Positions 13,713 through 62,323 of a stretch of DNA of 64,000 bases are shown piece by piece. Under the pieces are notes generated by a model. That model had not been told where the DNA came from. It did not search any database and saw nothing but the letters and a program-made list of their open reading frames with translations. The stretch's first letter is position 1; the number at the start of each line of letters is the position of its first letter. The position numbers and the translations under genes are program-made. Source of the DNA: Nitrososphaeria archaeon (GTDB taxonomy: Archaea > Thermoproteota > Nitrososphaeria > Geothermarchaeales > JDFR-13); assembly GCA_027078545.1 (NCBI GenBank), contig JALWXN010000004.1:96001-160000 (forward strand). Reading direction: 5' to 3'.

Positions 13713-13801
13713 TGGGGCCGCCGGCGGGATTTGAACCCGCGACCTCCGGCTTACTGCTTGGATCCACAGGCCGGCGCTCTAACCGCTGAGCTACGGCGGC
13801 C
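13713..13801 (-). tRNA. tRNA-His(GTG) with 12-nt intron (13752-13763); G-1 encoded
   Basis: C73 discriminator, upstream G, CCGGC/GCCGG stem. Confidence 0.92.
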
Positions 13802-19721: not shown

Positions 19722-19815
19722 TGGCGGGCCCGGCCGGATTTGAACCGGCGACCTGCGGCTAACCCCTACGTGGTAATAGGAGGCCGCCGCCATATCCTGG
19801 CTAGGCCACGGGCCC
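19722..19815 (-). tRNA. tRNA-Arg(CCT) with 16-nt intron (19761-19776)
   Basis: GCGGC/GCCGC stem, CTCCTA, CCA. Confidence 0.92.
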
Positions 19816-49463: not shown

Positions 49464-51695
49464 ATGGCCTATTTCAACCATCCACTTCTAAAGAAGGACA
49501 CGTTAGAATATCGTGTTTATCAGGACGAACTGGCTAAGAAGGCGGCGAAGAAAAACACTCTACTCGTCCTCCCAACGGGAACAGGTAAGACTGTAATAGC
49601 CCTACTAACTATACTTAGATGGTTGGATGAAAACCCTGATGGTAGGGCCTTCTTTCTAGCCCCTACAAGACCCCTTGTACATCAACACTATAAATTCTTT
49701 AGATCAGTCCTAGAGGGAGGGGTAACTATAGGTGTCTTGACGGGTGAACAGAGGCCTGAAAATAGGAGGATCCTATGGAATCAGAAAATAGTGTTTGCTA
49801 CTCCCCAGATACTCTATAACGATCTAGTTAGGGGTACAGTCTCAATAAGTAACAATGATATTCTAGTGTTCGACGAGGCTCACAGAGCAGTTGGCAACTA
49901 TGCATACGTAAAGATAGTTACGTATCTCAGACTAAGATCAATAGAGCCTAGGATACTAGCCATGACAGCATCGCCGGGCGATAAGACGAAGACCATGGAG
50001 ATCATACGTAACCTAGGACTGGAGAACCTTGAGATCTATACCCATGACGATCCGCTGATCGAGCAGTACTTCCACGGATATAGCGTGAAACCAGTCTTCA
50101 TAGAGATGGATCCTGTCCTTAGACACATAATCAACCTGGTGAAGACTGTTATGGAGAGATATGTCGACAGGGCCAACCTCATGCTCGAACCCTACGAGCT
50201 GAGGATCGACAAATCCAGAGTCTCATATAGCCAGATAGAGGAGATAAGGACACAGCTAAACGAGAAGATAACACCATTTAACGCCGTAGAGGAGAAGAAG
50301 ATCAAGATGATAAGGAAGATCCTCTATGAGATCATCCTCCTAGACAAATTCCTAACATACCTGGAGAGCTATACATACCAAACCGCACACAAATACATCT
50401 CTGAACTACTCGGATACTCGGGAAGCTCCAAGAAAGGCCTCAGCCTTAAAAATGAACGGGAGATCAGGGAAGCGTACTACCTCTTAGACTCACTTATCCG
50501 AAACGGCAGGATGCATCCAAAGACACAGAAACTGATAAACGTGCTCTCAGAGGAGGAGTTTAGACGTGCACTTGTATTTACGACTCTAAAAGAGAACGCC
50601 TATGAGCTGAGCAGTATAATTGCAACTAAGCTCGGGATCCCCTCATCCGTACTGGTAGGCAGGGGAAACAATGGGAGCAAGGGTATGAAGCAGAGTCTAC
50701 AGATAAAGACCTTGGAAGACTTCAGCTCAGGAGCGATAAGAGTCCTCGTAGCGACAAACATTGGGGAGGAGGGCCTAGACATTTCAGAGGTAGATCTGGT
50801 CATCTTCTACGACAACCCAGTAAGCGTCATCAGAAGGATACAGCGTATGGGTAGAACGGGACGTAAACAACATGGGAAAGTCATATTCCTAATACTCAGG
50901 GGGACCAGGGACGAGAAGAAGTACTATGCAGGGATACATAGATATAGGAGACTAGTAAGAGAGTTGAAAGAGCTTAAGAAGGAGCTTGAACTGATGAGCA
51001 CCTCATCAACACTAGACAACTTCATCTCAAGCGAACAGAGAAGGGAGGAGTACGTCGTCATAGTAGATACTAGGGAGCAGGGAAGCATTGTAAACAAGCT
51101 AGAGGCCATGAGGATACCCGTGAGGATAGAGTCACTAGAAATAGGTGACTACATCATCGGCAGAACCATAATCGAGAGGAAGACTGTGAAGGACTTTATG
51201 AGATCCCTCTATGAGGGTAGGCTATTCACACAGCTTAAAGAACTATCCACGCTAAAGGACTATAACAAGATCCTGCTCCTAGAGGGAGATAAAAAGGAGC
51301 TCCTAATATCAATGGGAACAAATACAGCAATAGGCACCATACTAACCATAGTCAACGACTACAAGATCCCTATCTACTACAGCGAGAATGAGGAGGAGAC
51401 CGCCAACCTGCTAAAGGTGCTCTACAACAGAGCGGTTAGAAACAAGGAGAAGACGGAGCGCATAAGGATGGATAAGAAGCCTAAGCAGCTAGAGGAGATA
51501 CAGCTATATGTACTGGCTGGGATACCCGGGATAGACAACAAGATGGCCAGGAGACTACTGGAGAAGTTCGGATCTCTAAAAGCAATAGCTAATGCCTCTC
51601 CAAACGACCTTATGAAGGTCCACGGAATCGGACCCGAGCTGGCTATGAGGATATACCGGGTATTCAATCATCACTACCGTGAGAAGGCTTCCTAG
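49464..51695 (+). CDS. hef: Hef (FANCM-like helicase fused to ERCC4 nuclease)
   Basis: PTGTGKT, DEAHRAVG, QRMGRTGR, then VDTRE, GDY, ERK nuclease motifs and (HhH)2. Confidence 0.93.
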   Translation: MAYFNHPLLKKDTLEYRVYQDELAKKAAKKNTLLVLPTGTGKTVIALLTILRWLDENPDGRAFFLAPTRPLVHQHYKFFRSVLEGGVTIGVLTGEQRPENRRILWNQKIVFATPQILYNDLVRGTVSISNNDILVFDEAHRAVGNYAYVKIVTYLRLRSIEPRILAMTASPGDKTKTMEIIRNLGLENLEIYTHDDPLIEQYFHGYSVKPVFIEMDPVLRHIINLVKTVMERYVDRANLMLEPYELRIDKSRVSYSQIEEIRTQLNEKITPFNAVEEKKIKMIRKILYEIILLDKFLTYLESYTYQTAHKYISELLGYSGSSKKGLSLKNEREIREAYYLLDSLIRNGRMHPKTQKLINVLSEEEFRRALVFTTLKENAYELSSIIATKLGIPSSVLVGRGNNGSKGMKQSLQIKTLEDFSSGAIRVLVATNIGEEGLDISEVDLVIFYDNPVSVIRRIQRMGRTGRKQHGKVIFLILRGTRDEKKYYAGIHRYRRLVRELKELKKELELMSTSSTLDNFISSEQRREEYVVIVDTREQGSIVNKLEAMRIPVRIESLEIGDYIIGRTIIERKTVKDFMRSLYEGRLFTQLKELSTLKDYNKILLLEGDKKELLISMGTNTAIGTILTIVNDYKIPIYYSENEEETANLLKVLYNRAVRNKEKTERIRMDKKPKQLEEIQLYVLAGIPGIDNKMARRLLEKFGSLKAIANASPNDLMKVHGIGPELAMRIYRVFNHHYREKAS

Positions 51696-51999
51696 CAAGG
51701 TTAAGAAGCCTGACGAGAGACTCTAGCATAGCCAGATCCTCCCTACTCAGCTCCTCCTTAGACAGGAGACCCCTAATCTCATTAACCAGCCTATACCTCA
51801 GAGTATTCCTGACCTCCCTCTCAAGCTCATCAACATACTCATCAAAAGTATCCACGACCTTAACATCCCTATCACAGACTGCACAGAAATACCTGTCGTC
51901 CTTCTTCAAGAGCGGGGACCCACATGATGGACACTCCAGATCCGTGAGGATCCATCCCTGCTTCATCAACCTACTTATACGTTTCTCCTCTCCTCCCAT
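51664..51999 (-). CDS. UPF0148/SSSCA1-like Zn-ribbon protein
   Basis: LMKQGW.L...CPSCGSPL...FCAVC. Confidence 0.8.
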   Translation of the reverse strand: MGGEEKRISRLMKQGWILTDLECPSCGSPLLKKDDRYFCAVCDRDVKVVDTFDEYVDELEREVRNTLRYRLVNEIRGLLSKEELSREDLAMLESLVRLLNLARKPSHGSDD

Positions 52000-52105
52000 C
52001 CCAGTTAGAATTAGCATCCACCCGAATTATAATGATGCCTAACCCCTAATTCATCGCCTTATAAATCTTCATATTCCCCAACCCTTTATAGTGGGAGGTG
52101 GTCCT

Positions 52106-52384: not shown

Positions 52385-52421
52385 CCAATATAATGACTAG
52401 CCATACAATCTAGATTTTGGT

Positions 52422-52543
52422 GGAGGGGTTCCCCTAGCCTGGCCAACCCCCCACGGGGGGCTATCGGGGGCGGGCTCAAGGTTGAAAGAGGAGAAACCCG
52501 CTGGCGTAGGCCTTCGTGGGTTCAAATCCCACCCCCTCCACCA
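52422..52543 (+). tRNA. tRNA-Leu(CAA) with two introns: D-loop (52447-52464) and 37/38 (52481-52495)
   Basis: Body nearly identical to Leu(TAA) at 27576; GCGGG/CCCGC stem. Confidence 0.9.
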
Positions 52544-52551
52544 ATGCATAG

Positions 52552-52670
52552 GCCGGGATGCCCGAGTGGCCCAAGGGGTCGCCGCAGCGGCCTAGGCCTC
52601 GAGATCCCCCTGCTCGGGCTAGCCGATGGGGCTCCGCCCCGCGTGGGTTCAAATCCCACTCCCGGCGCCA
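52552..52670 (+). tRNA. tRNA-Ser(CGA) with two introns: anticodon stem about 29/30 (52582-52595) and 37/38 (52604-52620)
   Basis: Aligns to Ser(GCT) at 13008 once the 14-nt and 17-nt inserts are removed. Confidence 0.88.
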
Positions 52671-52685
52671 ACATACTTGATCCAG

Positions 52686-54146
52686 GTGCACCTAAAGGTG
52701 AGGATTGAGGAGGTAGTACGATACATCAACAGCCAGGGATACATAGTACCTACAACCGTCATAAAGAGGTTTGAAGGTGTAGAGATAGATCTTGACGAAG
52801 ACAGGATAACCCAGTTCCTCCTCGAACAGGGAAGCATCATAATTGACGAGGAGAGTATAACGTCCTTCCTAGAAAGATACGTAACCAAGACGGGAGAAAC
52901 CGAGGAGGAACTAGAGATCGATATACTCTTGGAACATGATAACACGAGGATAAATGATCCAGCGGTTTTCCAGGAACTCCTCAGGAGCAGATATGAGGAC
53001 CTGAGAAAAAGGGTCGTCAGATCCATCGGGACATCCCAGATCTATACTGCGTCATCCCTCTTCACCGACATAGCCCTAAAGAAAGATATTAAAACGGTCT
53101 ACGTAGCCGGCCTGATATACTCGAAGAGAGTCATGGAGGACAGAGTAACAATAGAGCTGGAAGATCTATCAGGCATGATAACCGCAACAGTGTACAAGAA
53201 TACAAGGCCACAGGTATACAATACGGTGGTTAGACTCCCCCTAGACAGTTTAGTTGGACTCAAACTCAGAGTTGGTAATGAGGGCCGGTTAGCAATAGAG
53301 GACGTATATTTACCCAAGACCAAGAGCCTAGGCCAGACGAGGAATGTCGATGCATACATAGCCCTTATATCTGATATTCACGTTGGAAGTAAGAAGTTCA
53401 ACGAGGAGCTCTTCCTAGAATTCATAGACATACTGAGGGGGGAGACCGACAACACAGTACTCAGGGAGATCGTGAGGAAGACCGAGGCCCTCCTAATAGC
53501 TGGAGACCTTGTCGACGGTGTAGGAGTATACCCAAACCAAGAGAAGGAGTTGGATATAGATGATCTATGGCAACAATATGAGTATGCATATAGCCTGATA
53601 TCTAAGATTCCCCGCCGGATCAGGGTCATAATCATACCAGGTAACCACGACGCAAGCAGAAACGCCCTGCCACAGCCACCAATCTTCAAAAAATTTGCTG
53701 GAAAACTCTATGAAGACACACGTGTTTACATGCTCCCAAACCCTGTAAACATAGGTTTGCAGGGTGTAAACACGTACATCTACCACGGAGACTATATCCA
53801 AGACCTATTAACATCAACGCCTACCGTGGATCTAGACGACGTGGCCTCAGCCACAAAGATAATGATCAACACAGGCCACGTAGCCACCAACCTATCGCTA
53901 AACACCAAGGTGTTCCCCACACCAAACGACACCCTAGTACTACCTCCCAATATCGACCTGCTACACTTCGGCCATACGCATAAATTCAGGATCATGAAGA
54001 TCAACGGCGTACTAGCCATAAACAGTGGGACATTCCAGGAACAGACAACGTTCCAGAAGATGATGAAGATAGAGCCCGATGTAGGGAAAGTGGCGTTCAT
54101 ACATCTAGACGGCCTGAAACCCTTGACTCTAGACCTAACCGCCTAG
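52686..54146 (+). CDS. polB: DNA polymerase D small (proofreading) subunit DP1
   Basis: OB fold, SDIHVGS, AGDLVDG.G.YP.Q, PGNHDA, HG, GHTH, NSGTFQ; start uncertain. Confidence 0.93.
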   Translation: MHLKVRIEEVVRYINSQGYIVPTTVIKRFEGVEIDLDEDRITQFLLEQGSIIIDEESITSFLERYVTKTGETEEELEIDILLEHDNTRINDPAVFQELLRSRYEDLRKRVVRSIGTSQIYTASSLFTDIALKKDIKTVYVAGLIYSKRVMEDRVTIELEDLSGMITATVYKNTRPQVYNTVVRLPLDSLVGLKLRVGNEGRLAIEDVYLPKTKSLGQTRNVDAYIALISDIHVGSKKFNEELFLEFIDILRGETDNTVLREIVRKTEALLIAGDLVDGVGVYPNQEKELDIDDLWQQYEYAYSLISKIPRRIRVIIIPGNHDASRNALPQPPIFKKFAGKLYEDTRVYMLPNPVNIGLQGVNTYIYHGDYIQDLLTSTPTVDLDDVASATKIMINTGHVATNLSLNTKVFPTPNDTLVLPPNIDLLHFGHTHKFRIMKINGVLAINSGTFQEQTTFQKMMKIEPDVGKVAFIHLDGLKPLTLDLTA

Positions 54147-54149
54147 ACG

Positions 54150-55355
54150 TTAGAGAATATCCTCGATCAATGGATCTTCGGACAACGACTTCAACAATTC
54201 CTCCCTATCAACAAGAAGCCTGACAGTGCTAACCCTCCCACCTCTACGGCCATAGTTGTAGATCCTCCTACTTACAAGACCCATAACAGCCAACTCGGAG
54301 ACGAGGCTATAGAACCTCCTATAGGAGAGTGGATCCTCCCCCACCAGTTTACACAACCCGGTATATATGCTGTATAGCTTGGAAGACTGGATATTAGTTG
54401 ATCCAGCCTTGACTAGAGACACTAGGATGATCTTGCTGTGGAAGGGAAGCGTCTTGATCACCTCGGCGGTCCTCTCCACATCAATCCTCTCATAAGCCTC
54501 CCTAACATGCTCCTCAACAACTCTATGATCACCCCGTTCCTCAGCGATCTCACCAGCAACCCTGATGATGTCGAGGGCCTTCCTAGCATCCCCATGCTCG
54601 GATGCTGAGAGGGCTGCGGCCAGCTTGATACTACCGTCCTCAACAACGTTCGGCTTGAAGGCAAGCTTAACCCTCTCCCTGATAATCACCTCAAGCTCAG
54701 AAGCGGTATAGGGTTTAAACACGATCTCCTCCTCACTAAGACTGGAGAGTACCCTAGGATCCATAAGATCCTTAAACCTAAGGTCGTTGGATATCCCGAT
54801 GATCATGTAGGGAATATCGGCACCCTCATATCCAGCCCTTGTGAAGGAGTATAGAAGCTGATCACCATACCTAGTAACCAACACGTCTATCTCATCCAGC
54901 ACTATGACTATCGGAATCCTATCCTCCCTCAGCCTCAGAAGAACCCTAGAAATACCCTCCTCAACCGATAGGCCGGTGAAGGGTAGATCAACCCCAATAT
55001 CCGAAGCGATGCTAGCGACGACCCTATACTCGGTTCCGGCCATCCTACAGTTGACATATGAGATGTAGGCCGGGATACTATTCCTCTCGAGAAAGTCTCT
55101 CAGCCGGCCCAGTACATACTTAGTAACCGCGGTCTTACCCGTACCTGGCTTACCATAGATAAAGACGTTAGAGCTCTTCTCACCACGTATTATAGGGGAG
55201 ATCAGCCTACCAAGCCTAGCAATCTCCTCATCCCTAAACGGTAGGCTACTCGGAATATAGTCGTGGAACAGGACCTTCTTGTCACGGAATATCGGGCTCT
55301 CAGACACCGCCCGCTCAAAGATCTTGTCAAGAAAATCATCCGACACACCTCCCAC
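54150..55355 (-). CDS. cdc6: Orc1/Cdc6 replication initiator
   Basis: YGKPGTGKT, LDEID, DPRVLSSL, GDARKALD, C-terminal wHTH GRRGGR. Confidence 0.96.
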   Translation of the reverse strand: MGGVSDDFLDKIFERAVSESPIFRDKKVLFHDYIPSSLPFRDEEIARLGRLISPIIRGEKSSNVFIYGKPGTGKTAVTKYVLGRLRDFLERNSIPAYISYVNCRMAGTEYRVVASIASDIGVDLPFTGLSVEEGISRVLLRLREDRIPIVIVLDEIDVLVTRYGDQLLYSFTRAGYEGADIPYMIIGISNDLRFKDLMDPRVLSSLSEEEIVFKPYTASELEVIIRERVKLAFKPNVVEDGSIKLAAALSASEHGDARKALDIIRVAGEIAEERGDHRVVEEHVREAYERIDVERTAEVIKTLPFHSKIILVSLVKAGSTNIQSSKLYSIYTGLCKLVGEDPLSYRRFYSLVSELAVMGLVSRRIYNYGRRGGRVSTVRLLVDREELLKSLSEDPLIEDIL

Positions 55356-55359
55356 CTAG

Positions 55360-55660
55360 TCAATTCAAGTGTTTCAAATGTTCTTTACTCTTCTGTGACT
55401 AGTGAGCACATAGGGTTAGATACATACTATGAACATCACTCTAGAACTTCATCCGCTTTTCCTACGTTCAGTATATGAAATATCATACTGAAACAGATGA
55501 AACCAAGGGGTGGGGAGTTTCACATGTTTCGCAGCTTTTCACAGGAAAGGCCTAAACCCCTCTGTTTCAAGTGAAACCTGTGAATAGCTATCAAGATTCC
55601 TCCAGGAATGTAACCCTTTAGGAGGCTTGCCTAACACAAGCTTTATCACTTCACAGATCT
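55360..55660. other. Probable replication origin (oriC) with ORB elements
   Basis: GAAACAGATGAAACCAAGGGG (55490-55510, +) and GTTTCACTTGAAACAGAGGGGT (55556-55577, -) converge; further mini-ORBs at 55371 and 55517; non-coding and upstream of cdc6. Confidence 0.8.
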
Positions 55661-55675
55661 ACACTATATACAGTC

Positions 55676-56083
55676 ATGAAGCGAAAAGTGAAGATCGAGG
55701 TCGAGGCCGACGATGGTACGAAGATCAGGATAGAGGTTCCCAACAATGATCCTGAGAAGATATACATGTATCTCAAGGCCCTCAACATGATAACCGGTGG
55801 TAAGGATCTCCAAGAGGCCGGATCTGAAAAGGCCGGATCCAGGGAAGCCACCCTCATTGTAGACAGGGTACGCGAGATAATCCTATCTGAATTCGGTATG
55901 AGCACCTTCACCTTACATGATCTCTACAAGATTTACGAGATGAAGTATGGTGAGTCTATCCCGAAGTCGACACTATCGACATATCTATCGCGCTTTGTAG
56001 ATGATGGGTTGATAGAGAGGATCGGTAGAAGAGGGAGCTACAGGTATAGGGTAGCATCACCCGCTTTGTTCCATACCCAATAA
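55676..56083 (+). CDS. Winged-helix DNA-binding protein
   Basis: C-terminal FTLHDL...STLSTYLSRFVDDGLIERIGRRGSYRY. Confidence 0.8.
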   Translation: MKRKVKIEVEADDGTKIRIEVPNNDPEKIYMYLKALNMITGGKDLQEAGSEKAGSREATLIVDRVREIILSEFGMSTFTLHDLYKIYEMKYGESIPKSTLSTYLSRFVDDGLIERIGRRGSYRYRVASPALFHTQ

Positions 56084-56656
56084 CTCTCTTATCTCGTCAA
56101 TCCTGTCAGGGTTGACACGATATCTATAGGGCTTGGATGTCTCAATCCTAACAACGTATCCCTTACTATACAGCATCTTGAGGACACGGGAAATATGCTC
56201 CCTAGACTTTCCTAGACTTGAACTCAGCTCCGATGATGTAGCCTCACCCCTATCCATTAGGAGTGATAAGACCTCTACCTCTGCCCTGGATAGTGCTGCC
56301 GATCTCCTAGGCCTCCTCTCCATAGCCTCAGTAGGTCGCATACTACTGGGAACTGGTACTGGTTCAGGTGTAGCCTCACGAGCAGTAGATACTATGGATT
56401 CCTTGCCTTCTGATCCTACTCTCCTCTCGTTGGAAAGTTTGGCCTCTAGTAGTGAGACTCTACTCTTAACAGTCTTCAGATCCTCCCTGAGTCTGGATAT
56501 GCTTTGTTGGAGAGAATAGATCTCGGAGTAGCTAAGGCCTTCGATATGCTTCCTTGTATCTGATATTATCCTCATCATCATGATGATGACTAGTGACGTA
56601 GAGATGACAAACACTGTAAGCGCTATATCCATGAGTGATATCATGACAATATACAT
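56057..56656 (-). CDS. Membrane-anchored coiled-coil plus wHTH protein
   Basis: N-terminal TM, heptad stretch, Pro/Ser linker, LSRAEVEVL...SREHISRVLKMLYSKGYV.R....PYRY. Confidence 0.8.
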   Translation of the reverse strand: MYIVMISLMDIALTVFVISTSLVIIMMMRIISDTRKHIEGLSYSEIYSLQQSISRLREDLKTVKSRVSLLEAKLSNERRVGSEGKESIVSTAREATPEPVPVPSSMRPTEAMERRPRRSAALSRAEVEVLSLLMDRGEATSSELSSSLGKSREHISRVLKMLYSKGYVVRIETSKPYRYRVNPDRIDEIRELLGMEQSG

Positions 56657-56770
56657 TTTGTGACGTCATCATTATAAACAGTGATGCGGCTCCTCAATAC
56701 GGAAATAATAAGATGTGGACCTGGATCACTAGACCAGCAAAAAGATCCGCATGTCTATATTCTCTCGCGA

Positions 56771-57115
56771 CTATTCAAAGCTCTTCCTGAGATGCTCTCT
56801 GATGATCCTAAATAGGTGCTCAGGATCGATATCCTCATCTAAGAGTGATGTGATGCGTTGTATGATCGCTATGATGTCATCAAGTGATATCACATCACAT
56901 GCCACGAGTAGGGATAGTGTCATCATGGATTTCGTCACATTGTCGATTCCCTGATTCCTAACCCTATGGAACGTCCCTCGCTTCACCTTTTTACCGAGGA
57001 TTTGATAGGTCTTGCTTTGTCTCTGCACCGTTAGTGTGTAGAGTTGTCTCGATGTTATGCTGCTTATCCTGTCTATTTTTTTACCTAGTCGTGTAAATTT
57101 GCAGGCCTCCGACAT
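56771..57115 (-). CDS. Hypothetical protein, possible HTH with hydrophobic C-terminal helices
   Basis: SITSRQ...VKRGTFHRVRNQGIDNV pattern; start at MSEACK. Confidence 0.55.
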   Translation of the reverse strand: MSEACKFTRLGKKIDRISSITSRQLYTLTVQRQSKTYQILGKKVKRGTFHRVRNQGIDNVTKSMMTLSLLVACDVISLDDIIAIIQRITSLLDEDIDPEHLFRIIREHLRKSFE

Positions 57116-57203: not shown

Positions 57204-57458
57204 TTGATGGGTCGTAGAAGGAGGAAGAAGGTTGTTAAGATCTACAAACCTAAGATCCCTAAAATATTCACATGCCCAATATGCGGAGCTACCGCTCTGA
57301 ATATAACAATAGATAAGAAAAGTAGGAAAGCAGTAGCCAAATGTGCCGAGTGCGGTCTTCTATGGGAGACAGAAGTAAAGGAGTATGAGGAGAAGATAGA
57401 CATTTATCACAGGCTCTTCGACGAATACATTGATGCCGGGGGAGCTGAGGAGACGTGA
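57204..57458 (+). CDS. elf1: Transcription elongation factor Elf1
   Basis: MGRRRRK...FTCPICG...CAECG...DIY. Confidence 0.88.
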   Translation: MMGRRRRKKVVKIYKPKIPKIFTCPICGATALNITIDKKSRKAVAKCAECGLLWETEVKEYEEKIDIYHRLFDEYIDAGGAEET

Positions 57459-58246
57459 AGATTGGGCCTACTGAAAAGTATCTATGGAGTGAGATCGAGT
57501 CTAAAGGATCGATACATCTGAGCCTTCTCGACCCTGAGGAGTTTCAGGATCGTGAAAAGCTTATTGAAACGGTCTCTATAGCCGAAGAAGCAGGTACCTC
57601 TGGCTTCATGATAGGAGGCTCTACAGTCTTCGATCAGAGCCTCGTTGATCGTGTTGTCATGATGATAAAGGAGGTGACGTCACTACCCGTCATATTGTTT
57701 CCAAATGACATCACAGGATTGTCACGTCATGCAGATGCCTTGTGGTTCATGTCGTTGCTAAACAGCATCAATCCCTACTTCATAACAGGGGTTCAGATGA
57801 GGGCCGCCTTCCTTGTGAAGGCTATGGGTCTAGAGGCCATCCCAATGGCATACCTGATTGTGGGTGAGGGCAAGACGGCGGGATACATGGGATATGCCCA
57901 TAACATACCCTTAGATGAGCCTAAGATCGCGGCTGCCTATGCATTGGCCGCCAGATACATGGGGTTTAGATTCGTCTATCTCGAGGCCGGCTCGGGAGCG
58001 GGGAACAGAGTAGACACTAGGGTTATTAGGATAATCAAGAAGGCCGTCGACGAAATCGGACTCGTAGTAGGGGGAGGCATAAAAACCTATGAGGATGCCT
58101 TCGACGTAGCTAGTTCCGGTGCAGATATCGTTGTTACGGGGAATATCCTGGAGGTGGATCCCAAGAGGATCTTCGACATCGTTAGAGGGGTAAGAGAGGG
58201 TGGAAAAGAGAAGCTTAGAACCCTTCATCGAAAAGCTCAGGACTAA
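57455..58246 (+). CDS. Geranylgeranylglyceryl phosphate synthase
   Basis: LLDP, MIGGS, FMSLLNS, YLEAGSGA, VGGGI, VVTGN. Confidence 0.93.
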   Translation: MKIGPTEKYLWSEIESKGSIHLSLLDPEEFQDREKLIETVSIAEEAGTSGFMIGGSTVFDQSLVDRVVMMIKEVTSLPVILFPNDITGLSRHADALWFMSLLNSINPYFITGVQMRAAFLVKAMGLEAIPMAYLIVGEGKTAGYMGYAHNIPLDEPKIAAAYALAARYMGFRFVYLEAGSGAGNRVDTRVIRIIKKAVDEIGLVVGGGIKTYEDAFDVASSGADIVVTGNILEVDPKRIFDIVRGVREGGKEKLRTLHRKAQD

Positions 58247-61200
58247 GGATCTGGATCCAACACTTCAGAGCTATTTCCAATCCATTATAAATGAGGTTCT
58301 TAGACAATACGATCTCGCTAATAAGCTGCGATCACAGGGTTCTGACCACGTACCTCATGTGGAGACTGAGCTTATCTGGGATATGGCTGAACGTGTTGAG
58401 AAGCTTATAGGCATAGATGGGATAGCCGAGTTTATCAGGTCCAATAAGGACTTATCAAGGGAGAGACTGGCGATTAAGGCCATAGACAAGCTTATAGACG
58501 GTGAGTTCGGAGATTACGAGCTAGGTAGACTCGTGGATCTAGGTGTTAGACTTCCCCTAGCCATCCTAACCGAGGGTATGACTGTAGCCCCTCTAGACGG
58601 GATAAAGAAGGTGGTGATTAAGAGGGGGCCTTTCGGAAACTATCTCTCCATATATTACGCAGGCCCGATAAGATCAGCCGGTGGTACTGAGACCGGTCTA
58701 TCAATAGTTTTGGCGGACTATCTTAGGAGGAGGCTGGGCCTAGAGAAATATTATCCAACAAAGATGGAGATCCATCGTTTCATCGAGGAGCTAAGGCTAT
58801 ATGAGAGGAATGTAGCTAGGTTCCAGTACCACCTGACGGATGAGATGCTGTTCTACATCCTTAGCAATCTACCTGTAGAGGTTACGGGCGTACCTACTGA
58901 TAACATCGAGGTGCTTGTGTATAGGGACATCCCCTCGATAGAGACTAATAGGGTTCGTGGGGGAGCGCTCAGGGTAGTTAATGATGGGATCGGGGGTAAG
59001 GCTAAGAAGCTTCTAAAGATCATCGATGAACTGGGTCTTGAGGGCTGGGAGTGGCTGGAGGAGGTTGCTAAGGGTGTGGCTGGCCAGGGTAAGGGTGACG
59101 AGGAGGAGGACAAGGTGCTTAATGATCTCGTCATAGGTAGGCCGGTCATCTCCCTCAAGTCTAGCACACACGGCCTACGTCTAAGGCTGGGGAGACTGCC
59201 CAATACAGGGATCTCAGCCGTAGCTGTCCATCCGGCCGTCTTCTCCGTATTAAGATACTTTATAGTCCCAGGGTCTCAGCTTAAACTGAACATCCCTGGT
59301 AAGGGAGGAATAGTAGTCCCGTCAAGAATAGCAATGCCACCAATAGTTGAGCTAGATAACGGTGATGTAGTCGAGGTAGAGACGGAGGAGATTGGTGAGG
59401 AGCTCTCCCAGAGGATAAAGAGGATCCTTTTCCTAGGAGACATAATCGTCTCCTATGGAGATTTCCTGGAGAACAACCAGCCGATACCTCCGCTACACTA
59501 TACCCCTGAGTGGTGGATAGGCGAGCTGGAGGAGGCCACGGGGAGGAGATATGACACGCAACTCCCTTATCAATTATCATATGGAGAGAGTTTTGAACTC
59601 TCCGAGAGGTATGGGATTCCCCTCAACCCCTACTATGTACCCTCCTTTGAATACCTAAATGTGGATGAAACTGAGAGTCTCGTCTCCCAATTGAGCGATG
59701 GATATGTTAAGCATGGAGAGGGCGAGCTAATAGTCAGTGGCTCTAGGGAGCTATCCCACCTACTTAAAAAGGCTAGGATCCCCTTCCGACGGAAGGGTGA
59801 GCTTATCGAGATCCGGCATAGATACTCCTACATCCTACATGACTTGATAAGGGGCTATAGGAGCCAGAGGTTGTATAAGCCTAGATTCACCAATTCCTCC
59901 GACGTAGTCTCATTCTACCTAGGCGTTAGGGTTAGGTGCCTAAGAGGGACCTATGTATCGGCTAGGCTAGGTAGGCCGGAGAAAGCTAAGATGCGGAAGA
60001 TGAACCCACCGGTACACGCCCTCTTCCCCATAGGAAGCTATGGGGGTGACCAGAGGAACATCGTCAAGGCATACAAGCAGAACGAAATAGTTGTAGTCCA
60101 GCTATCCATCCTCTACTGTGAGACCTGTGGGAAGTACACATATAGGAACAGGTGTGAGACATGTGGATCCAGGACTGTCCAGGCCTACTACTGCTACAAC
60201 TGTAAAGTAGACACCCGATCCGAGAGTTGTCCCAAATGTGGGAGAGAGACGAGGCCATACAAGAACTGGTCCATCAACCTTAGAGATCTTGTCAGGGAGA
60301 TTAGGGAGAGACATGGCCTAAGGATCCCATCCAAAGTAAAGGGTGTAAAATCACTCCTAAGCGGATATCGGAGATATGAGGAGCTATCCAAGGGAGTACT
60401 GAGGGCTAAACATGGCTTATCAGTATTTAAGGACGGTACATGTAGAATAGATATCACTAACGCTCCTCTCACAAGTGTCTCTCTCAGGGACATAGGGATA
60501 GATGTGGATAAGGCAAGAGAATTGGGATACCAGGTCGACAGTATAGACGATGTTATAGACTTGATGCCTATGGACATACTGATCCCCGAGTCGATAGTCC
60601 CAGACCTCATCAACATGTGCAGTTTTATAGACGAGGAGATAGTGAAGCTGTATGGCGGTGAGCCTATCTACCGGGTGAGGGATAAGACAGACCTCATCGG
60701 CAAGTTGGTCGTCGGCCTCTCCCCACATACCTCCTCAGGAGTTATAGGCAGGATAATCGGCTTCACCAAGGCCAACGTCCTATATGCCCATCCACTCTGG
60801 CACGCTGCTAAGCGGCGTGACTGCGATGGGGATCAAGACGCAATTATGCTGCTTATGGACGTCCTACTAAACTTTAGTAGAGAGTACCTACCCTCCTCAT
60901 CTGGAGGCCGGATGGATGCCCCCCTCTTCGTCTCCGTAGTTGTACATCCGGAGGAAGTTGATACACAGGTCCATAACCTAGACGTCGTTGATAGATACCC
61001 ATTGGTCCTATACGAGAAGTCATTGGAGAACGTGTCGCCTAAGTTGCTTAGAGAATATATCGCTGTGGTTGAGGACTTCCTTGGAGAATCGAAGGCCTAT
61101 TATGGCTATGGAGCCCTGGATAGGGCGCCTATCCTATCTACAATAAAGAATGTCAACATGTATTCCAAGCTCAAGAGCATAGAGGCTAAGCTGGATAACC

Positions 61201-61610
61201 AGCTTAAAATAATGGAGAGGATCTTTGAGGGCGACGACAAGGCCCTCATCGTTGAAAACCTGCTTAAGAACCACGTGCTGAGGGATATAATGGGTAACCT
61301 GAGGAGCTTCTACCACCAGAGCTTTAAATGCTCCTCCTGCGGAGCCACATACCGTAGAACCCTGCTCAAGGGGACATGCATAAAGTGTGGCGGAAACCTT
61401 AGGCCGACAGTCCACACTAAAAGCGTGGTTAAATATCTGCCCCTCGCCAAGAAGCTGTCTAGCTATGTGAGGAGCCGCTACATCTTGTCCTATATCTCCC
61501 TTATTGACTCTATACTGGCTTCAACGTTTGAGCTGGATACACCGCTTGGTACCAGTATTTTCGACTATGTTGAGAGGGACGCTACTCAACAAGATAGAAC
61601 TGATCAGTGA
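58200..61610 (+). CDS. polC: DNA polymerase D large subunit DP2
   Basis: YAGPIRSAGGT, RLGRPEKAK, HAAKRRDCDGDQD, GGRMDAPL, Zn fingers. Confidence 0.97.
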   Translation: MEKRSLEPFIEKLRTKDLDPTLQSYFQSIINEVLRQYDLANKLRSQGSDHVPHVETELIWDMAERVEKLIGIDGIAEFIRSNKDLSRERLAIKAIDKLIDGEFGDYELGRLVDLGVRLPLAILTEGMTVAPLDGIKKVVIKRGPFGNYLSIYYAGPIRSAGGTETGLSIVLADYLRRRLGLEKYYPTKMEIHRFIEELRLYERNVARFQYHLTDEMLFYILSNLPVEVTGVPTDNIEVLVYRDIPSIETNRVRGGALRVVNDGIGGKAKKLLKIIDELGLEGWEWLEEVAKGVAGQGKGDEEEDKVLNDLVIGRPVISLKSSTHGLRLRLGRLPNTGISAVAVHPAVFSVLRYFIVPGSQLKLNIPGKGGIVVPSRIAMPPIVELDNGDVVEVETEEIGEELSQRIKRILFLGDIIVSYGDFLENNQPIPPLHYTPEWWIGELEEATGRRYDTQLPYQLSYGESFELSERYGIPLNPYYVPSFEYLNVDETESLVSQLSDGYVKHGEGELIVSGSRELSHLLKKARIPFRRKGELIEIRHRYSYILHDLIRGYRSQRLYKPRFTNSSDVVSFYLGVRVRCLRGTYVSARLGRPEKAKMRKMNPPVHALFPIGSYGGDQRNIVKAYKQNEIVVVQLSILYCETCGKYTYRNRCETCGSRTVQAYYCYNCKVDTRSESCPKCGRETRPYKNWSINLRDLVREIRERHGLRIPSKVKGVKSLLSGYRRYEELSKGVLRAKHGLSVFKDGTCRIDITNAPLTSVSLRDIGIDVDKARELGYQVDSIDDVIDLMPMDILIPESIVPDLINMCSFIDEEIVKLYGGEPIYRVRDKTDLIGKLVVGLSPHTSSGVIGRIIGFTKANVLYAHPLWHAAKRRDCDGDQDAIMLLMDVLLNFSREYLPSSSGGRMDAPLFVSVVVHPEEVDTQVHNLDVVDRYPLVLYEKSLENVSPKLLREYIAVVEDFLGESKAYYGYGALDRAPILSTIKNVNMYSKLKSIEAKLDNQLKIMERIFEGDDKALIVENLLKNHVLRDIMGNLRSFYHQSFKCSSCGATYRRTLLKGTCIKCGGNLRPTVHTKSVVKYLPLAKKLSSYVRSRYILSYISLIDSILASTFELDTPLGTSIFDYVERDATQQDRTDQ

Positions 61611-61947
61611 TGTCCACGAATTTGATGGCCCCGTCCTGGAAGACAAGTTTATAGACGTTGTTAACATTGAAGTTTATGCCGAGGGCCTTCTCCTCCTCGG
61701 GTAAGAGGAAGAGGACCATCTTTAGATTCCTAACCTGTTGGAAGGGCATCACCACCCCCATGTTTCTAAGCTGGTTGACCATCTCCCTAACCATCCTAAC
61801 CTCGGGCGACTGATACCCCTGCTCCTGCCTAGTCTCTATAATGGAGAACTCTATCCTCTTCCCCCTCCCACCGCCTCTATTGTCGACGTAGGACTCTATC
61901 CTGGTTACTACTACATAGGTCTCTTTATCCATTTGTCTCGCCACCAT
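61582..61947 (-). CDS. Arcadin-1-like protein
   Basis: V..IESYVD..G..GKRIEF...KMVLFL.PEEE..LG pattern recalled from arcadin-1. Confidence 0.6.
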   Translation of the reverse strand: MVARQMDKETYVVVTRIESYVDNRGGGRGKRIEFSIIETRQEQGYQSPEVRMVREMVNQLRNMGVVMPFQQVRNLKMVLFLLPEEEKALGINFNVNNVYKLVFQDGAIKFVDITDQFYLVE

Positions 61948-62323
61948 CCTCCTTCTTTAGAACCCTAATATCCCTAATACCCGCTTCATATAAGTTTACG
62001 ATGGTGTTTGGACTAGCCTCTCCAAACAGCTTCCCGAAATCCTTGTATAGCTGTCTCCACTTCAGACGTGTCCGGCCACTCCTCGATATATACTCGACAC
62101 CTAGGACATTGTTGACCTCCACCACCACTATATCCTCTATCTGCTCAAGATCCTTCTTGCTCTCCGCCTCAATGTATACCTTCCCAACGTCATTCCTCCT
62201 CTCAAAGAGTATGTTTGGATTGTCCATATACTTCCTAGGAAACTTGGTCTTCCCTGTGCTCTCCACCAGGAACTTCTTCAGCTCTTCTAGGGTGCAATAT
62301 ACTTCTATCTGCATCTCCCACAA
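61925..62323 (-). CDS. Hypothetical protein
   Basis: 132 aa ORF overlapping the arcadin-like gene; SRSGRTRLKWRQ, GEAS.NTIVNL. Confidence 0.65.
   Translation of the reverse strand: MWEMQIEVYCTLEELKKFLVESTGKTKFPRKYMDNPNILFERRNDVGKVYIEAESKKDLEQIEDIVVVEVNNVLGVEYISRSGRTRLKWRQLYKDFGKLFGEASPNTIVNLYEAGIRDIRVLKKEDGGETNG

Follow-up and report, generated by a model that had tools for sequence, protein, structure and literature searches.

What do the three uncharacterised genes do that adjoin the replication origin of an archaeon? The question is raised by 64,000 nucleotides from a Nitrososphaeria archaeon (assembly GCA_027078545.1, contig JALWXN010000004.1, positions 96,001 to 160,000), which we call the window and whose numbering is used throughout. 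Here the initiator gene cdc6, the origin oriC with its origin recognition boxes (ORBs) and the genes that we name g1, g2 and g3 stand in the order cdc6 <- oriC -> g1 <- g2 <- g3, with both subunits of DNA polymerase D (PolD) on the flanks. The fuller order is Hef, a p27-type zinc ribbon, UPF0147, the PolD subunit DP1, orc1/cdc6, the spacer, g1, g2, g3, Elf1, geranylgeranylglyceryl phosphate (GGGP) synthase and the PolD subunit DP2. An earlier, sequence-only reading of this DNA had placed three uncharacterised genes next to the ORBs, and all three open reading frames (ORFs) are present:

54150..55355 (-): initiator gene orc1/cdc6, with Cdc6_lid, Cdc6_C and AAA domains
55676..56083 (+): g1, an ORF of 135 aa
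56057..56656 (-): g2, an ORF of 199 aa
56771..57175 (-): g3, an ORF of ~114–134 aa

The answer that we favour, with slightly more doubt than belief, is that g1 may be a factor controlling the origin or cdc6, and that g2 may repress its own gene and keep DNA near the origin at the membrane. Origin firing, origin positioning and chromosome segregation in archaea are largely unknown beyond a few Sulfolobus and haloarchaeal models. The genome in which the three genes lie comprises 1.24 Mb in 11 contigs, and the genome-wide counts given below cover all of it.

A predicted membrane-anchored DNA-binding protein

How might a single protein bring DNA to the membrane? Three parts can be distinguished in g2:

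56579-56635 (aa 8-26): transmembrane (TM) anchor, a hydrophobic segment of 19 residues near the N-terminus
about aa 46-73: coiled coil, with a linker after it
56114-56293 (aa 122-181): TrmB-type winged helix-turn-helix (wHTH), with an invariant REH in the recognition helix

The wHTH scores 42.0 bits against PF01978 (TrmB; cut-off 25.6) and 29.5 bits against PF01047 (MarR; cut-off 24.6). All eight of the a and d positions of the heptads are hydrophobic (8/8). The TM segment has neutral or acidic residues on its N-side and positive charges on its C-side, as the positive-inside rule predicts. The TM segment, its flanks, the heptads, the wHTH and the invariant REH are common to 19 of 19 aligned homologues, in which the mean Kyte–Doolittle hydropathy of the segment is 1.6–3.2. 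The ‘TM–coiled-coil–linker–wHTH’ protein that the sequence-only reading described is confirmed. Because these features recur in all the homologues, we conclude that g2 must, to judge from its sequence, be a membrane-anchored protein whose DNA-binding domain lies in the cytoplasm.

In g2, the wHTH itself is the C-terminal domain; neither a TrmB-type C-terminal effector-binding domain nor a MarR-type helical dimerisation core was found. Nor is there an extracytoplasmic sensor domain, the N-terminal tail being short. The protein, which is present as a single copy in the genome, unites a DNA-binding domain, an oligomerisation region and a membrane-targeting element, as do tethers of the RicO/RacA/Noc type. 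That likeness defines a functional class and not a family of homologues.

An array of GTGAT sites at g2

If g2 binds DNA, where might its sites lie? The genes overlap a dense cluster of palindromes, as the sequence-only reading had noticed: TGAYRTCA occurs 51 times in the 1.24 Mb, yet six copies lie within 1.1 kb at this locus, where 0.045 are expected. These palindromes belong to a more general motif, (T)GTGAT, which is concentrated at the following places:

56661..56678 (-): g2 core promoter, with TTTATAA (56672-56678), then the palindrome TGACGTCA (56661-56668), then the ATG
56601..56900: (T)GTGAT / TGAYRTCA array over the g2 N-terminus, the g2 promoter and the 3' coding sequence of g3, its position conserved in relatives
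57656..57730: second cluster, of GTGA[TC], inside the coding sequence of GGGP synthase, about 200-260 nt into the gene

The 300-bp window that begins at 56601 holds eight copies of GTGAT, the maximum of the genome; 0.55 are expected per 300 bp and the next highest window elsewhere has five. In most relatives the region upstream of g2 or g3 is likewise the densest GTGAT window of the 16-kb locus, with 7–13 copies against about 0.5–1 expected. The arrays of the relatives begin just past a TATA-like box and reach the ATG of g2; parts of three of them (L036, L041, L052) are spaced at 10–11 bp. In the source genome and most lineages the array is ~1 kb from the ORBs. At three loci where g2 is not beside cdc6 (L033, L043, L050) it stays with g2, and five loci without a full-length g2 (L034, L037, L038, L040, L051) have no comparable array, with at most 2–4 copies. 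Since the recognition helix of g2 and the motif are both conserved and co-occur, we infer that g2 binds the GTGAT array. The association of the arrays with the genes, like the arrays themselves, is observed here directly.

The array also leaves its mark on protein-coding sequence. For the valine of Val-Ile dipeptides g3 uses GTG 22 times out of 34, compared with 67 out of 425 in the other long ORFs of the same loci, a bias that points to selection on the DNA sequence itself. At the position of the GGGP synthase cluster, five family relatives (L013-L016, L020) have 3–6 copies of GTGAT packed into some 75 nt, though the encoded peptide varies; the cluster was not seen in L025, the sole Nitrosopumilaceae-like locus checked. 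The genes for g3 and GGGP synthase are thus two cases of constraint at the DNA level on coding sequence.

Is there a wider GTGAT regulon? A search of the genome gave no clusters at other promoters. The other GTGAT-rich windows and triplets lie inside coding sequences, among them that of EF-1alpha, and look like chance. As a separate observation, three GTGAT copies fall within 40 bp at the start of a 375-aa ORF (C4:162624-162666), 2.6 kb past the end of the window and ~10 kb from oriC; this triplet is one of only five in the genome.

The origin and its recognition boxes

Is the DNA between cdc6 and g1 indeed an origin? The spacer measures 320 bp. It holds two inverted ORBs with G-strings; a further, ORB-like element is found where cdc6 starts:

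55347..55381: ORB-like element at the cdc6 start, a C-run followed by GTTTCAAATG, read from the sequence with approximate limits; relatives have an ORB at the equivalent position
55488..55515 (+): ORB2, a TGAAAC core followed by a G-string, read from the sequence and conserved in family relatives
55557..55577 (+): ORB3, a C-string with a GTTTCAAGTGAAAC core, one of only two ORB-pattern matches in the 1.24-Mb genome

The pattern searched for was a C-string plus TTTC[CA], and of its two matches in the whole genome one is that at 55557. In the cdc6-bearing loci of relatives the pattern recurs in the cdc6–g1 spacer where g1 is annotated. It stands beside cdc6 in three loci with no g1 match (L022, L028, L030), and in L043, which is without cdc6, it lies ~0.8 kb upstream of g1. 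The inverted ORBs are ~45 bp apart, and the DNA between them is not AT-rich. The GC skew switches sign near 56–57 kb, a weak signal. We conclude that the spacer is, as its elements read, a bona fide origin region of the ORB type. Nitrosopumilus maritimus has one mapped origin (PMC4010727).

Repeats among the ORBs and at g1

A second class of repeat is interleaved with these elements:

55518..55542 (-): two TTCAC (GTGAA) sites between the inverted ORBs
55571..55584 (+): tandem GTGAA-N4-GTGAA, which abuts ORB3 and is a candidate site for g1
55633..55648 (+): putative g1 promoter by its sequence, with a TATA-like CTTTATCA and, between it and the ATG, ATCAC/TTCAC sites

Over 36 loci, the 500 bp upstream of g1 hold 2.18 tandems of the form GTGAA-N2-6-GTGAA per kb, and the rest of the loci 0.035 per kb, a 62-fold difference. 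The tandems usually lie at about -105 to -145 from g1, where they abut an ORB, and they are also found upstream of g1 at L034 and L048, which are not linked to cdc6. The oriC of genome G063 has scattered single GTGAA motifs and no tandems.

In Nitrosopumilaceae-like loci TTAACA/GTTAAC takes the place of GTGAA between the ORBs, with 10–12 copies per 400 bp against 0.3–0.7 expected. This switch of motif tracks a change in the recognition helix of g1 from Thr to Val, Ile, Ala or Leu: a helix of the form S-T-x-STYL pairs with GTGAA, while S-V/I-I, A-L-V or A-A-V pairs with TTAACA. The out-of-class locus L041, with S-A-V in the helix, has a mixed motif set.

The proteins g1 and g3

What kind of protein is g1? 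Its AlphaFold model (pLDDT 68) comprises an N-terminal domain of 45 aa, built of strand, strand and helix, then a disordered linker and a single winged helix. The most conserved residues of the protein are the invariant STYLxR of the recognition helix. The sequence-only reading was thus right about the winged helix and overstated the N-terminal domain as beta-rich, the model having two strands and a helix. Against Pfam and NCBIfam no family model matches g1, a weak MCM_C hit apart. A search of the ESM Atlas gave no named family, its neighbours there being hypothetical proteins of Bathyarchaeota. Foldseek against the PDB returned generic winged helices only (best E 3e-3), including the cullin WHB, Rpa2WH and MCM winged helices. 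A profile search of 1.84 billion cluster representatives found 471 relatives, nearly all of 100–220 aa. By these searches g1 founds a new, hitherto unannotated family of predicted winged-helix proteins, which is now defined. A prediction of the complex between g1 and the cytoplasmic part of g2 scored 0.00, which bears neither for nor against binding.

And g3? Here the model is better overall (pLDDT 77.5) and shows a putative helix-turn-helix (HTH; about aa 37-95) with a weak likeness to the sigma-4/LuxR/Tfx type, followed by a C-terminal helical pair. It is low (<50) only for residues 1-26; since these residues model so poorly and the relatives begin there, the true start is likely M21, at 57115. 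There was no Pfam hit for g3 and no Foldseek match against the PDB. A profile match to EnfR (8hno) is weak at E 0.11. With VIA-align the HTH domains of LuxR, sigma-4 and EnfR reach Z 4.7–5.1 (EsrB 5.1, 8hno 4.7), and many sigma-4 rows have Z 3.6–4.5. Of the ‘small HTH-like protein’ described earlier, the small ORF stands and the HTH assignment is weakly supported. By tblastn g3 seemed restricted to its family; a positional search then showed that, all through the class, the place upstream of g2 is taken by an orthologue of diverged sequence.

Conservation of the cassette

How far does the arrangement extend? The nearest named relative of the source genome is a metagenome-assembled genome (MAG) of Candidatus Geothermarchaeota, and a sister MAG was the sole match in a single-protein scan. 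The order DP1-cdc6-ORBs-g1-g2-g3-(Elf1)-GGGP synthase-DP2 recurs in the class families f1, f3, f4, f6 and f7, including complete Nitrosopumilaceae-like genomes of 1.6 Mb, and is present in part in f5 (L018) and f9 (L028), for each of which there is one locus. Synteny with cdc6 and PolD across Thaum-, Aig-, Bathy- and Geothermarchaeota-like lineages, which the earlier reading had named as a check upon itself, is thus largely borne out.

Across the phylum g1 was found in 206 of 301 sampled genomes. At the level of families its distribution matches that of DP2, with the exception of f10, f12 and f15 (DP2 only) and f34 (g1-like only, with no match to the DP2 query), and it was mostly not found in families without a PolD match, which are probably Thermoprotei. 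A hand count of the listed coordinates puts g1 no more than 13 kb from DP2 in 48 of 54 comparable genomes from outside the class. Among 19 out-of-class loci, g1 is beside cdc6–DP1 in 11; all three genes are present in seven, g1 with g2 in three, g1 with g3 in three and g1 alone in six. These counts are descriptive and not independent, because the sampled genomes are related to one another.

Where the cassette has split, the g3–g2 pair, with its TM anchor, persists 15 and 33 kb from the main cdc6 (G063 and G070, respectively). The frames of g3 and g2 overlap by about 40 nt in G063, and in G070 g2 begins 3 nt past the stop of g3. In these two out-of-class genomes (L054:2021-2814 and L055:1894-2711) the pair consists of shorter proteins (about 130 and 145 aa), and g2 keeps its TM anchor with a much reduced coiled coil.

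How might the cassette work?

The genes, their architectures and their synteny are observed here; what they would do together is a matter of interpretation. In the mechanism that we favour, the three genes and oriC would form an old, conserved cassette (cdc6 <- ORBs -> g1 <- g2 <- g3) of the PolD-bearing lineages of the Thermoproteota. The protein g2 would be inserted in the membrane with its short N-terminus outside, and with its coiled coil and TrmB-type winged helix in the cytoplasm. It would bind the (T)GTGAT array that extends from between its own TATA box and ATG into the coding sequence of g3, and probably also the GGGP synthase cluster. When so bound it would repress its own transcription, and would necessarily hold at the membrane DNA that is about 1 kb from the ORBs. 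The GTGAA repeats among the ORBs and at the g1 promoter, or TTAACA in the Nitrosopumilaceae-like lineages, would be bound by g1, acting as an accessory factor for origin firing, for cdc6 expression from the shared cdc6–g1 control region, or for both. The sigma-4/Tfx-like HTH protein g3, encoded just upstream of g2, would be a partner. The pairing of each repeat with its protein, the tethering and any effect on replication or segregation are what we infer. A bolder version would make of the cassette a ParA-free apparatus that organises the origin in PolD-bearing Thermoproteota (Thaum-, Aig-, Bathy- and Geothermarchaeota-like), in which membrane-anchored g2 on a centromere-like GTGAT array fixes the origin and g1 between the ORBs couples initiation to anchoring; this we think unlikely.

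Several observations weigh against a role at the origin, and some of them speak for the main rival, that g1, g2 and g3 are ordinary autoregulated transcription factors, perhaps also repressing cdc6, Elf1 or GGGP synthase. Their place next to the origin would then reflect only the conserved gene order of a replication island, and the anchor of g2 would serve regulation. We regard this as doubtful, though a serious contender. At g1 and g2, motifs of both classes stand between the TATA-like box and the start codon, g2 is itself a regulator of the TrmB/MarR class, and the arrays follow the genes and not cdc6. The GTGAT array is on the promoter of g2 itself and travels with g2 away from cdc6, so that it fits autorepression as well as it fits a centromere, and plain autorepression would suffice without any role at the origin. 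Linkage to cdc6 is lost in f16, f18, f24, f34 and f37, where the genes are retained 20–500 kb apart or on different contigs, and some loci have g1 without g2 or g3. No motor ATPase is nearby. As the earlier reading had stated for ParA, no AAA_31 match occurs in the window, and genome-wide the domain is matched only by a P-loop fragment (C4:990490); any role in segregation would therefore need to do without a dedicated motor. On the other hand, 7–13 sites far exceed a simple operator and reach into coding sequence and, in the source family, 200 nt into the GGGP synthase gene; no GTGAT cluster was found at another promoter of the genome; the g1-type sites are interleaved with ORBs rather than simply placed at a promoter; and where g3–g2 has split from g1, its distance to cdc6 is no more than 15 and 33 kb, as checked in two genomes. 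Of the earlier proposal that a TM-wHTH protein anchors the origin through centromere-like sites, what survives is the cluster of sites, which does exist, has no equal elsewhere in the genome and goes with g2; what tells against it is the position of the array and the loss of cdc6 linkage in several lineages. That g2 is instead a transcription factor held inactive in the membrane and released or switched by a signal, such as intramembrane proteolysis or the state of the lipids, and so links envelope or lipid status to expression, seems to us very improbable. The neighbouring GGGP synthase gene, with its internal GTGAT cluster in the source family, would suit such a switch, as would the GTGAT triplet 10 kb away, where another ORF begins, and a protein that has no extracytoplasmic sensor domain and only a short N-terminal tail. 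But the GGGP synthase cluster was not seen in L025, the single locus of Nitrosopumilaceae type that was checked, and the cassette includes no conserved protease gene. A coiled coil together with arrays of many sites speaks, moreover, for a complex of several copies assembled on the DNA.

What if g1 does not bind DNA at all? It might instead serve the initiator or replisome as an accessory whose winged helix binds protein, much as those of Rpa2, MCM or Cdt1/WhiP, in which case GTGAA would be mini-ORB half-sites for Cdc6. GTGAA is one half of the local ORB core (GTTTCA-nn-TGAAAC), and so some of the repeats may be Cdc6 half-sites and not g1 sites. The g1 model is of moderate quality and its matches are generic, some of them binding proteins and not DNA, with the cullin WHB, Rpa2WH and MCM winged helices among them beside the weak MCM_C hit; and the presence of g1 tracks PolD by family. 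The covariation of helix and motif amounts to about two independent lineage events, with L024 a partial exception. Yet GTGAA tandems stand upstream of g1 without a nearby ORB or cdc6 (L034, L048), the TTAACA arrays occupy the same places in oriC and are unlike ORBs, the strongest conservation in g1 is in the recognition helix, and f34 has g1-like genes with no match to the DP2 query. We consider a protein-binding g1 of this kind improbable.

Neighbouring genes and other features of the window

The flanks of the cassette are themselves conserved:

52626..54146 (+): PolD small subunit DP1, named from its translation without a family search, conserved by tblastn
57204-57458 (+): Elf1-like zinc ribbon (Pfam Zn_ribbon_Elf1), a conserved flank
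57455-58246 (+): GGGP synthase, named from its translation without a family search, a flank conserved by tblastn
58200..61610 (+): PolD large subunit DP2, named from its translation without a family search, conserved by tblastn and genome search

The listed DP1 ORF runs too far 5', into a GC-rich stretch. This stretch (52397-52708, between UPF0147 and DP1) is packed with short overlapping ORFs, and ARAGORN gives no tRNA in it. The gene for the p27-type zinc ribbon (51664-52017) adjoins Hef; a zinc-ribbon ORF of similar appearance, picked out by eye without a family search, is the immediate upstream neighbour of the main cdc6 of genome G063 (L056:1954-2334). This zinc ribbon may be another member of the conserved replication island. 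On the other side, 3' of DP2, are two small overlapping ORFs of 121 and 132 aa (61582-62323, -), which match no Pfam or NCBIfam family and have 47–98% identity in family relatives. Farther off, ARAGORN makes two ‘tRNA-???’ calls, at 13713-13800 and 19722-19815, with anticodons of two and four bases; these are probably intron-containing tRNAs. A GC-rich block at ~16–19.5 kb resembles an rRNA operon.

Comparison with known systems

In the literature that was searched, the cassette, the g1 family and the arrays are nowhere described. Winged-helix DNA binders and DNA–membrane tethers are known; what is new is an archaeal, origin-linked, membrane-anchored form with arrays. The ammonia-oxidising Thaumarchaeota are abundant in nature, and three widely conserved candidate proteins with predicted DNA sites at the origin make the question directly testable in cultured Nitrosopumilus or Nitrososphaera.

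Which known system does g2 resemble most? By analogy the closest functional parallel would be RicO of Staphylococcus aureus, with an N-terminal DNA-binding domain, a C-terminal amphipathic helix and nine sites over about 700 kb (bioRxiv 10.64898/2026.03.06.710092). Like g2, RicO joins a sequence-specific DNA-binding domain and a coiled coil to a membrane-targeting element; its sites, too, are near the origin, and the tether itself needs no ParA. Unlike g2, RicO is bacterial and is unrelated in sequence: g2, to judge from its sequence, carries a genuine TM segment at the N-terminus and a TrmB-type wHTH at the C-terminus, and its predicted sites are packed into one or two arrays on or near its own promoter. 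RacA and Noc of Bacillus follow the same domain logic as RicO.

In ParR/parC, AspA of pNOB8 and SegB, the gene of the binding protein has at its promoter a long series of sites, spaced at about one helical turn, and an adjacent NTPase (ParM, ParA or SegA) is present. In systems of the ParR/parC and AspA type a single array is both centromere and autoregulatory operator. Because such arrays do both jobs, a site on its own promoter cannot separate a regulator from a centromere-binder. The array at g2 resembles them in that iterated, centromere-like sites lie next to the gene of the putative binding protein; it differs in that there is no adjacent partition ATPase and in that g2, unlike those proteins, would be anchored in the membrane. 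With the TrmB and MarR regulators g2 shares a wHTH above both Pfam thresholds, and an N-terminal TM anchor and coiled coil replace their ligand-binding or dimerisation domain.

What of g1? WhiP, far larger, carries winged helices in tandem and is an initiator at oriC3. With WhiP and Cdt1 g1 has in common that it is an origin-adjacent winged-helix gene of an archaeon. The comparison with WhiP drawn in the sequence-only reading finds no support nonetheless: in its 135 aa g1 combines an N-terminal domain of 45 aa with a single winged helix, and similarity to a named family could not be detected; neither WhiP nor Cdt1 was returned for it by the Pfam and NCBIfam searches. The UBP protein, which binds the ucm element, a short motif between the ORBs of Sulfolobus oriC1, is a beta-rich, saddle-shaped nucleoid protein with hundreds of genomic sites, and is not encoded at the origin (PMC12141716). 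We considered UBP as a relative and rejected it on the ground that the fold differs: g1 is a predicted winged helix encoded beside oriC, and UBP is neither. In both cases, though for g1 the role is only proposed, a small non-initiator protein would recognise a short motif between the ORBs of an archaeal origin, and by this analogy UBP with ucm appears to be the closest archaeal precedent for what g1 may do.

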